Shown piece after piece: positions 4,963 through 5,430 of a stretch of DNA of 62,023 nucleotides. Numbering within the stretch: position 1 is the first letter of the stretch; each line of letters begins with the position of its first letter. The notes beneath the pieces were generated by a model, which worked only from the letters and a program-made list of their open reading frames with translations, was not told the origin of the DNA and did not search any database. Origin of the DNA: a virus. The stretch lies in the IMG/VR virus record IMGVR_UViG_3300001687_001193. One strand, 5' to 3'. Position numbers and translations under genes: made by a program.

Positions 4963-5304
4963 ATGGAGAGAATAAGCGAAGATTTACTTCTTCAGATAAG
5001 AGATAAAATCTCCGATATAATATGCGATGCTAAGGCAATTTTAAAAAGTCATGAAGATGCCCTGTATGAGTTAAAGGCGGGCCGCTTTATTTACGTAGCC
5101 GTCTACGAGTCTCTGTGGGCAGATTATGGAGAACAAACGGTAACATATCGCGGAAAATTCGACGAAGACTTGAATGATGTGATTCTGCGCGCTGAAGAAG
5201 AATTTAAGAGTATAAATAAAAGGTCAGATGTACAAGCGAATCGCAAGTATTTCGTTGAAGTTTGGAATGGCGTACGCATAGAAATAACACATAAGTGCCA
5301 GTAG
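4963..5304 (+). CDS. hypothetical protein
   Basis: 113-aa ORF; AAGGAGAA RBS; its stop TAG overlaps the first nt of the following tRNA. Confidence 0.4.
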   Translation: MERISEDLLLQIRDKISDIICDAKAILKSHEDALYELKAGRFIYVAVYESLWADYGEQTVTYRGKFDEDLNDVILRAEEEFKSINKRSDVQANRKYFVEVWNGVRIEITHKCQ

Positions 5305-5430
5305 CTCAATCTTGGGAGAGCGCCGGATTGACTCGGGATGGTCTAATTGGAAAGACGCTTGGAGATTTAGGTTCGAGCCCTAATCTCGGGACAGATCCGG
5401 TTGTTGCAGGTTCAAATCCTGCCTGGCACA
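5295..5430 (+). tRNA. interrupted tRNA gene (Cys-GCA-like if spliced after position 34; anticodon uncertain) with a 68-nt insert in the anticodon loop
   Basis: Perfect acceptor GTGCCAG/CTGGCAC, D-arm GCTC...GAGC, T-arm GCAGG-TTCAAAT-CCTGC. The anticodon stem halves CCGGA (5323-5327) and TCCGG (5396-5400) are separated by 68 nt that include the loop; hand-folded. Confidence 0.55.

Follow-up and report, generated by a model that had tools for sequence, protein, structure and literature searches.

A huge-phage tRNA gene whose anticodon loop holds a second tRNA without an anticodon arm

Introns in phage tRNA genes have been reported once, in 2019, when the tRNAs of Lak megaphages were found to carry "enigmatic introns" and such introns were said to be unreported before in phages (Devoto et al., 2019, Nat Microbiol, PMC6784885). 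The Lak introns are 79-114 nucleotides (nt) long and interrupt tRNAs of the types Tyr-GTA, Phe-GAA, Thr-TGT, and Gly-TCC; the tRNA-Thr intron "itself may encode a tRNA", and three of the four introns in Table S6 have "no hit in rfam" (PMC6784885). Intron-less alleles exist, with the true boundary shifted one base from the tRNAscan call (PMC6784885), and the Lak introns are therefore discrete insertions. No mechanism was proposed in that paper, a later Lak paper notes merely that the eukaryotic mode is needed to call these tRNAs, and no paper proposing a mechanism for such introns, nor any report of nested tRNAs or tRNA-like introns beyond Lak, was found among open-access papers and preprints. 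Here, a nested pair of tRNAs is described at positions 5295-5430 (+ strand) of a 62,023-nt stretch of the IMG/VR virus record IMGVR_UViG_3300001687_001193; this whole stretch is called the window. The anticodon loop of one tRNA gene holds an insert that is itself a tRNA lacking the anticodon arm. The element is a simpler, new variant of this known, unexplained kind of phage tRNA intron and the cleanest example found, in that the intron would be nothing but a tRNA-like body starting at its own +1.

When Table S6 was reanalysed, each of the four Lak introns was seen to begin with a 5' hairpin, to which an A/U linker and a 7-base-pair (bp) acceptor/T-arm module are joined, with C or CA after the module, and canonical loops were obtained in 4/4 of them once the one-base shift was applied. 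The window element resembles them as a short insert, not of group I, that splits the anticodon loop of a very large phage's tRNA, with a 3' acceptor/T-arm module that ends 0-2 nt past the discriminator (here 5332-5391 plus C5392); one Lak case also splits a tRNA-Phe(GAA). In contrast, the conserved 5' hairpin (ACAGAGUAAACUGU-like) and A/U-rich linker (26-30 nt) of the Lak introns are absent here, where the intron starts directly at the inner +1 after UUGA, and the insertion lies at 36/37 in Lak whereas it is predicted at 35/36 here. There is no sequence similarity, the inner element here keeps a full D arm and has lost the anticodon arm, and the host phage is unrelated to Lak in base composition (43% vs 26% GC). 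The Lak-type 5' hairpin is also borne by the IMG/VR locus L032.

More distant systems share single traits with this locus. The bulge-helix-bulge (BHB) introns of archaea and eukaryotes, which are served by EndA/Sen and by RtcB or Trl1, are likewise short and placed in the anticodon loop, and they resemble the reading given below in their removal by protein or ribonucleoprotein and in the re-ligation of the halves while the tRNA body holds them together. However, the two 3-nt bulges split by a 4-bp helix are missing here, the intron is not at 37/38 (placement there gives U37), it is a tRNA-like fold that defines it, the ends are predicted to be 3'-OH/5'-P rather than 2',3'-cyclic-P/5'-OH, and the context is a bacterial virus. 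Embedded tRNA-like modules that direct processing by RNase P, and by RNase Z and the CCA enzyme, are known from the mascRNA of MALAT1 and from mitochondrial tRNA punctuation, but here the module sits in the anticodon loop of another tRNA and a functional product needs ligation. Another acceptor/T-arm elbow that directs RNase P cleavage in a longer transcript is found in YrlA of Mycobacterium smegmatis, where the internal tRNA-like domain, whose acceptor stem has 7 bp, is cleaved by RNase P and receives CCA (PMC4201824). Group I introns in the anticodon loops of bacterial tRNAs (tRNA-Leu UAA, fMet, Ile, Arg, Asn/Asp in Patescibacteria; PMC13011429) also cut a bacterial-type tRNA at positions other than 37/38, but they exceed 200 nt and have a P3-P9 core, whereas the 61 nt concerned here hold no ribozyme core, so that self-splicing by group I chemistry is impossible. 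Finally, a 3'-OH/5'-P ligase seals a nicked anticodon loop in the T4 repair system (Pnkp and Rnl1) and in jumbo-phage cassettes, and genes for ligases requiring 5'-P/3'-OH ends are frequent among jumbo phages (PMC7824862). The nick that T4 repairs comes from an anticodon nuclease with which the host defends itself, whereas here it would be programmed by the structure of the gene itself, and no ligase was located in the part of this genome that was read (~80 kb).

The nested gene and its inner tRNA

The nested anatomy at 5295-5430 is close to certain. Read from the sequence, the outer gene is a tRNA cloverleaf with all its stems Watson-Crick paired, and its parts (all + strand) are as follows:

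5295-5301 and 5423-5429, +: outer acceptor stem, GTGCCAG with CTGGCAC, from the sequence
5302-5303, +: outer U8-A9, from the sequence
5304-5321, +: outer D arm, from the sequence and the Rfam tRNA model
5322, +: outer G26, from the sequence
5323-5327 and 5396-5400, +: halves of the outer anticodon stem, CCGGA and UCCGG (TCCGG in the DNA), with 68 nt between them
5295-5331, +: 5' exon, ending with the loop bases UUGA (5328-5331), predicted to be U32 U33 G34 A35
5393-5430, +: 3' exon, beginning with the loop bases AGA (5393-5395), predicted to be A36 G37 A38
5401-5405, +: outer variable loop, UUGUU, from the sequence
5406-5422, +: outer T arm with loop UUCAAAU, from the sequence
5430, +: outer discriminator A5430, followed by C5431 as in other tRNA genes here, from the sequence

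The Rfam tRNA model (RF00005) was aligned to 5295-5430 end to end (model 1-71, 54.5 bits, E=2.8e-11) with one 64-nt insertion, placed in the anticodon loop. This bears out the earlier note on this DNA, which had read a tRNA gene interrupted in that loop with perfect acceptor, D, T, and anticodon stems and the anticodon-stem halves 68 nt apart; all of these are present. The outer gene has no continuous 7-nt anticodon loop, and 7 nt are regained only when exactly 61 nt are removed in silico. ARAGORN did not call it in default mode; in intron mode, a run proposed in the same note, the gene was found with a 61-nt intron of arbitrary register. Folding of 5295-5430 gave a minimum free energy (MFE) of -56.1 kcal/mol (z = -4.3 vs shuffles), and a pair of T-loop motifs 15-45 nt apart occurs at 1 site in the window and in 0 of 100 shuffles. 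The same sequence was recovered letter for letter in Logan SRR6207735, Logan SRR6207736, JGI 3300001855, and a 460,921-bp contig of ENA (ERZ27279932, k141_1082626), and this identity across four assemblies excludes an assembly artefact. In Logan SRR6207735 a contig break falls inside the insert, its two ends sharing a 27-nt overlap and joining seamlessly. Polymorphism was considered as the cause of this break and rejected, as it is merely the overlap of two unitigs.

The insert, in turn, is a tRNA that lacks the anticodon arm and is nested within the anticodon loop of the outer one:

5332-5391, +: inner tRNA-like molecule, from the Rfam tRNA model on the insert alone
5332-5338 and 5384-5390, +: inner acceptor stem, CUCGGGA with UCUCGGG, 7 bp of which 2 are G-U
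5339-5340, +: inner U8 G9, from the sequence
5341-5344 and 5353-5356, +: inner D stem, GUCU with AGAC, 4 bp
5345-5352, +: inner D loop, AAUUGGAA, with A14, G18 G19, and A21
5357, +: inner G26, from the sequence
5358-5366, +: inner linker of 9 nt, CUUGGAGAU, from the sequence
5367-5371 and 5379-5383, +: inner T stem, UUAGG with CCUAA, 5 bp
5372-5378, +: inner T loop, UUCGAGC, from the sequence
5391, +: inner discriminator A5391, following the acceptor stem

With 5326-5396 alone as query, the Rfam tRNA model matched 5332-5391 globally (model 1-71, 35.4 bits, E=1.2e-6), above its gathering threshold of 29 and with the anticodon arm as the sole deletion. U8, A14, G18, G19, A21, G53, U54, U55, C56, A58, and C61 are all retained in the sequence, and the features of a minihelix substrate are present, namely 7+5 bp forming a 12-bp acceptor/T helix, the T loop UUCGAGC, and G18 G19 as its partner in the elbow. 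The inner tail, A73-C74-AG, is identical to that of tRNA-Val(UAC) in the window. The earlier note had already recognised a structured insert with a D-arm-like hairpin GTCT-AATTGGAA-AGAC, found at 5341-5356, and a T-arm-like GGAGATTTAGG-TTCGAGC-CCTAATCTC, found at 5361-5387. It had also seen direct repeats CTCGGGA bracketing the insert; both copies exist, but the second lies at 5385-5391 and not at 5384-5390. These repeats are not target-site duplications but the two strands of the inner acceptor stem, as CUCGGGA is self-complementary through G-U pairs and both copies therefore pair as the 7-bp stem.

Among the options that had been offered for the insert, a mini-intron fits best. The BHB type does not, since no such motif appears on folding, where both junctions share one 2x3 internal loop (GA/ACA) flanked by a 7-8-bp helix and an 8-bp helix. 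A length of 61-68 nt is indeed far too short for a group I intron, and neither Intron_gpI nor any ribozyme or other intron family of Rfam matched 5200-5500 at E<=10.

Recurrence of the nested layout and the boundary rule

The architecture was searched for as two T-loop motifs 15-45 nt apart in four scans of IMG/VR, which gave at least 475 sites, at least 436 of them distinct, including the window. A strict detector asked that the outer molecule have a 7-bp acceptor stem, a D stem, a correctly spaced 5-bp anticodon stem, and a T arm, and the inner one a 7-bp acceptor stem and a T arm. It gave 13 solutions among the 436 sites listed, 10 of them perfect (28/28 pairs) and 2 at 27, whereas 40 shuffles in which the T arms were kept gave none at score 28 and 0.025 per replicate at 27. 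A looser detector without the D-arm and geometry filters was dropped because of its many chance solutions (scores <=22). At least 11 further contigs, 4.7 to 332 kb long and every one with a tRNA array, have the nested layout; by comparison, 0/126 candidate sites in bacterial and archaeal genomes and 1/128 in JGI metagenomes were nested. When eight of the nested analogues were compared with INPHARED by BLAST, matches to cultured phages were confined to the inner tRNA-Phe of L099, an ordinary one.

The inner elements of these contigs (handles with L denote individual loci) range from complete tRNAs, in L099 (Phe), L398 (Asn), L384 (amber-suppressor-like, CUA), and L041, to minihelices of 40-45 nt with a GG-containing connector, in L106, L334, L352, L185, L140/L168, and L376; the armless form of the window stands between the two. 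Pairing in the 12-bp acceptor/T helix reaches 99.5% over a set of 16 introns, the four published Lak introns among them, with compensatory changes in 11/12 pairs (0/500 shuffles as high); 12 of the 16 had been chosen for pairing, and the unbiased part of this test consists of the Lak introns and L032.

The window and 11 analogues give one rule, which most of them follow: when the inner "tRNA" is cut out just as a tRNA would be matured, a canonical anticodon loop results. Stated as an operation, if the inner element is excised from its +1 up to a point e bases beyond N73, a 7-nt loop is left, and this holds in nine cases including the window. ARAGORN in default mode accepts 9/9 of the spliced products as ordinary tRNAs, with these restored loops:

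L140/L168: CUGUUAA, Asn
L106: CUUAUAA, Ile-UAU
L099: CUUCUAA, Arg-UCU
L334 and L376: CUUUUAA, Lys
L352: CUUUGGA, Gln
L185: UUUGUAA, Thr
L398: CCUUUAA, Lys
Window: UUGAAGA, Phe

The value of e follows the 3' ends of the ordinary tRNA genes on the same contig. Where e=3, the bases are CCA in 5/6 cases, and CCA is encoded by 10/10, 10/12, 22/25, 8/11, and 3/5 of the tRNA genes there; where e=0 (L140/L168), CCA is encoded by 0/7. In the window e=1, the base being C, and 19/21 tRNA genes have C after the discriminator while 0/21 have CCA (P=6e-13, with Rfam ends taken as the discriminator and a C frequency of 17.5%). L032 also has e=1, and 6/6 of its tRNA genes carry C74 only. This tracking argues that the inner element is matured by the host's tRNA 3'-end machinery and speaks against RNA-level insertion of a mature tRNA, which would give CCA everywhere. 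C74 without C75-A76 is seen, for example, at the tRNA genes 24602-24673 and 29641-29725 of the window; in the 10 kb upstream, two tRNAs (Tyr and Pro) do encode CCA.

The 40-41-nt minihelix introns of L106, L334, and L352 have in common the T loop UUCAACU, a connector A-N-R-GG-W-A-U, and fully compensated stems, and they occupy different tRNAs (Ile-UAU, Lys-UUU, and Gln-UUG) on unrelated contigs, which suggests a related and possibly mobile lineage. In L384 (- strand, nested tRNA from 5696 of the reverse strand) the inner loop is UUCUAAU with the anticodon CUA, of the amber-suppressor type, and the outer loop after excision is a non-canonical one of 8 nt. A GC-rich motif (...GCCGGTTCGAyyCCGGCTsGTTrGCCGA...GGGTTCGAnTCCC...), in which two hairpins resemble T loops, recurs in L022, L063, L076, and L138 of IMG/VR. 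The detector does not take it for a nested tRNA, and ARAGORN, run on L138 alone, made no call in it; actinophage-like contigs may thus have here a structured RNA that is yet undescribed.

The predicted spliced tRNA and routes to it

If the boundary rule from the analogues is combined with the genome's own C74 convention, the intron would be 5332-5392 (61 nt), from the inner +1 base through A5391 and C5392 (position 74), and it is predicted to split the anticodon between positions 35 and 36. On these two grounds the product is probably a 75-nt tRNA-Phe(GAA) with the loop UUGAAGA (UUGA joined to AGA). The in-silico spliced product was called tRNA-Phe(GAA) by ARAGORN, ordinary tRNA-Phe genes of phages in IMG/VR loci have the predicted 13-mer GGAUUGAAGAUCC letter for letter as their anticodon arm, and the window together with its flanks (~80 kb around the site) yielded no second tRNA-Phe. 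The predicted junction in the spliced RNA reads ...CCGGAUUGAAGAUCCGG..., the Phe-type spliced junction being CGCCGGAUUGAAGAUCCGGUUG, and the predicted intron-less allele is GCGCCGGATTGAAGATCCGGTTGTTGCAGG. Bacterial tRNA-Phe has A73 as its discriminator and bacterial tRNA-Cys has U73. The outer discriminator, A73, thus agrees with tRNA-Phe; the anticodon GCA (Cys) that the earlier note had thought possible, for which the spliced loop would read UUGCAGA, is less likely given this base and the Phe(GAA) outcome of the rule.

As to how such a product may arise, excision of the tRNA-like intron by RNase P and a tRNA 3'-end nuclease, followed by ligation of the halves, is on balance the likely route. 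The intron would fold with its acceptor stem stacked on the T arm and with the D arm giving G18-G19 to the elbow, a fold of the kind that serves the CCA-adding enzyme, RNase P, and tRNA 3'-end nucleases as a recognition signal. RNase P would cleave at the +1 of the intron (5331/5332) and leave the 5' exon with a 3'-OH, and the nuclease that forms the other tRNA 3' ends of the phage would cleave after the inner C74 (5392/5393), so that the 3' exon bears a 5'-phosphate. The exon halves, held together by the outer acceptor and anticodon stems, would then amount to a nicked tRNA, the anticodon loop of which could be closed to UUGAAGA by a 3'-OH/5'-P ligase of the Rnl1/Rnl2 type, which many jumbo phages have. 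The L099 analogue lies 4-6 kb from the RNA-repair genes RlaP, cREC, and Pnk-HD.

More generally, and more tentatively, large phages may carry a distinct class of tRNA introns in which tRNA-end enzymes define the ends and a phage RNA-repair ligase joins the exons. The acceptor/T-arm minihelix might be the sole conserved feature of this class, whose members would span 40-nt minihelices as well as complete nested tRNAs, with RNase P conceivably acting at +1 and the 3' nuclease, depending on the convention of the host, at N73, C74, or CCA.

Several points weigh against splicing by the tRNA-end enzymes. Splicing itself, the enzymes, the exact cut sites, the ligation, and any role of the released 61-nt RNA are what we infer from the anatomy and the rule. 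The MFE fold, while keeping the inner acceptor and D stems, swaps the inner T arm for a different hairpin (-56.1 kcal/mol vs -44.3 kcal/mol for the nested cloverleaf). A canonical RNase Z cut after N73 would leave an 8-nt loop, UUGACAGA, and a cut after C74 is assumed from the convention of the genome and not from known biochemistry. Genes for an RNA ligase, RNase Z, or RNase P were not found in the window, the 10 kb upstream, or the 8 kb downstream. Among the analogues, the restored loop of L398 has C33 and is non-canonical, L041 and L384, with complete inner tRNAs, leave loops of 8-10 nt, and the Lak-type introns and L032 bear a 26-36-nt 5' extension that RNase P alone would not remove. With the loop masked, the body of the outer tRNA resembles annotated phage tRNAs of mixed type (Asn, Phe, Trp, Pro); in a comparison with 591 phage tRNAs and INPHARED annotations, Phe was among the best but not exclusive, a weakly informative result. 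Finally, INPHARED, IMG/VR, and the protein database yielded neither a homologue nor an intron-less allele of this particular gene, so there is no gene-specific covariation.

Some of these points would suit a dead or selfish insertion, in which a tRNA-derived fragment sits unspliced in the anticodon loop and makes the outer tRNA a pseudogene, and at most an inner tRNA-like RNA and two tRNA halves are released. Cleavage by RNase P and RNase Z alone would destroy the outer tRNA, no ligase was found nearby, the loops left by L041 and L384 are non-canonical, and, with at least 26 tRNA genes in the window, one could decay. Such an insertion is nevertheless unlikely, since 28/28 pairs in the outer and inner stems are unexpected in a decaying gene, since excision by the rule restores a U33/R37 loop of canonical form in the window and in 8 further cases (the chance expectation for the geometry being near zero), and since decay would not predict a 3' boundary that follows the tRNA 3'-end convention of the genome; the element is also unchanged across three samples. 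Less likely still is a true intron removed by another route, whether by a dedicated endonuclease of the phage that reads the junction, by a small ribozyme of a kind not yet described, or by a splicing endonuclease of archaeal type that accepts a relaxed motif, with RtcB-type ligation afterwards. The absence of a BHB and of ribozyme or intron family matches at E<=10 speaks against this, as does the fact that no splicing endonuclease (EndA/Sen, tRNA_int_endo) or RtcB was found among ~50 window proteins compared with Pfam and NCBIfam, and the conservation of the acceptor/T minihelix alone and the tracking of the 3' boundary with CCA, C74, or N73 would be left unexplained; it would, on the other hand, accommodate the conserved 5' hairpin of the Lak-type introns, which RNase P does not explain, as well as the PD-(D/E)XK nuclease that adjoins the tRNA array of L099 and the several window phosphoesterases that could heal RNA ends, and the exact cut sites proposed above are predictions.

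An unspliced 136-nt RNA resembling two tRNAs, acting for instance as a Y-RNA-like partner of Ro60 or as a decoy for host defences that target tRNAs, is improbable. A Ro60/TROVE protein is encoded in the window (15196-16926) and bacterial and phage Y RNAs have tRNA-like domains (PMC4201824), but the element lies 10 kb away from that gene, a better candidate for a Y RNA is placed directly downstream of Ro60 (16929-17046), and no Ro60 was seen in the contigs that hold the analogues. The YrlA motif GNCGAAN0-1G is also missing, with no CGAA in 5295-5430, and the arms follow the normal order, whereas in YrlA the order is permuted (T arm, then D arm); the reading of 5295-5430 as a Y RNA was therefore rejected for want of the motif and for the better candidate beside Ro60. 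Chance resemblance or an assembly chimera is effectively refuted already: the contig break of Logan SRR6207735 within the insert is bridged by the 27-nt overlap of its ends and four assemblies are identical, while Rfam E-values of 2.8e-11 and 1.2e-6 and a motif pair seen in no shuffle leave hardly any room for chance.

Genomic setting and significance

The source of the window is a huge phage, with a contig of 460,921 bp that encodes EF-Tu, EF-Ts, and at least 30 tRNAs. The window itself holds at least 26 tRNA genes, all on one strand and set among small open reading frames (ORFs); the element lies between two co-oriented ORFs, overlapping the stop of 4963-5304 by 10 nt and ending 13 nt before the ATG at 5444. 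The proteins encoded include EF-Tu, Ro60/TROVE, IMPDH, a DnaJ-kinase, and an intein-containing AAA ATPase. No relatives of the region were found in INPHARED by megablast and blastn, which returned generic T-arm matches only, and exact-pattern scans of IMG/VR gave 11 ordinary tRNAs for the inner T arm and nothing for the outer 3' half. The flanking proteins had no homologue beyond themselves in 5.8 billion proteins or IMG/VR, and a Phe-specific nested pattern gave two matches in IMG/VR, neither of them a nested tRNA.

Other tRNA-like and structured RNAs were seen in the same DNA and in that of L099. The genes for tRNA-Trp(CCA) (2084-2167), tRNA-Lys(UUU) (18032-18116), and tRNA-Val(UAC) (29641-29726) have extra arms of 12-20 nt, as hairpins in the variable region, and reach 84-86 nt in total, though these tRNAs are normally of class I. 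On the same contig, ~3.4 kb upstream of the window start, L136 6165-6283 is a 119-nt tRNA-like RNA just before tRNA-Tyr, with the acceptor ACCCGAG/CUCGGGU, a T-arm-like GCGGG-UGCGAAU-CUCGC, and large insertions in the D and anticodon regions; it scores 11.8 bits (E=8.4) against the Rfam tRNA model. The candidate beside Ro60/TROVE (16929-17046, + strand), which directly follows that gene, is an RNA of ~115 nt with a 16-bp terminal stem (AUGACACGGCUGGGGU.../...CCCAGCCGUGUCAU) and then a U-run; its MFE is -45 kcal/mol (z=-4.9), no Rfam family matches it at E<=1, and it is probably the Y RNA of the phage. In L099, 6171-11467 lies beside the nested-tRNA array and encodes the PD-(D/E)XK nuclease, RlaP (an RNA-ligase-associated Pol-beta nucleotidyltransferase), the cREC cyclic-phosphate-processing domain, and a polynucleotide-kinase/HD phosphatase; it is an RNA-repair cassette, the ligase of which would lie outside the DNA examined. 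A skipping-rope RNA (Rfam) is present at 1708-1777 of the same contig.

Among the proteins of the window, that of 25622-26392 (+ strand) has a metallo-beta-lactamase fold. Its assignment as RNase Z by NCBIfam was rejected, as its best solved relatives in the PDB are Apyc1 anti-Pycsar cyclic-nucleotide phosphodiesterases (7u2r, E=5e-18), and it is likely a counter-defence gene. A full-length EF-Tu is encoded at 28324-29559, and EF-Ts (L671 16368-16564) ~8 kb past the window end. Also encoded are an M42 aminopeptidase, the IMPDH, a DnaJ-Ser/Thr kinase fusion, and several phosphatases of the DSP/calcineurin type. The AAA ATPase (42430-45201) is split by a LAGLIDADG intein-like domain (residues ~504-573), and a free-standing ORF with LAGLIDADG and helix-turn-helix domains (19627-20097) lies between tRNA genes.

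If splicing by tRNA-end enzymes is true, bacterial viruses would splice tRNAs by means of RNase P, a tRNA 3'-end nuclease, and an RNA-repair ligase, which would add a fourth to the routes by which tRNAs are spliced, and the first in the bacterial world to depend on protein or ribonucleoprotein. The maturation of some phage tRNAs (Phe, Lys, Gln, Arg, Ile, Thr, and Asn) would then need a phage-encoded ligase, and the RNA-repair ligases of jumbo phages would gain a housekeeping role beyond countering anticodon nucleases. The window element would be the simplest, "armless tRNA" form of the intron class, and the origin of nested tRNA genes would be explained. Standard tRNA finders in bacterial mode overlook such genes, as here with the only tRNA-Phe seen in ~80 kb, and the tRNA repertoires of phages and the codon-usage inferences drawn from them are therefore biased.

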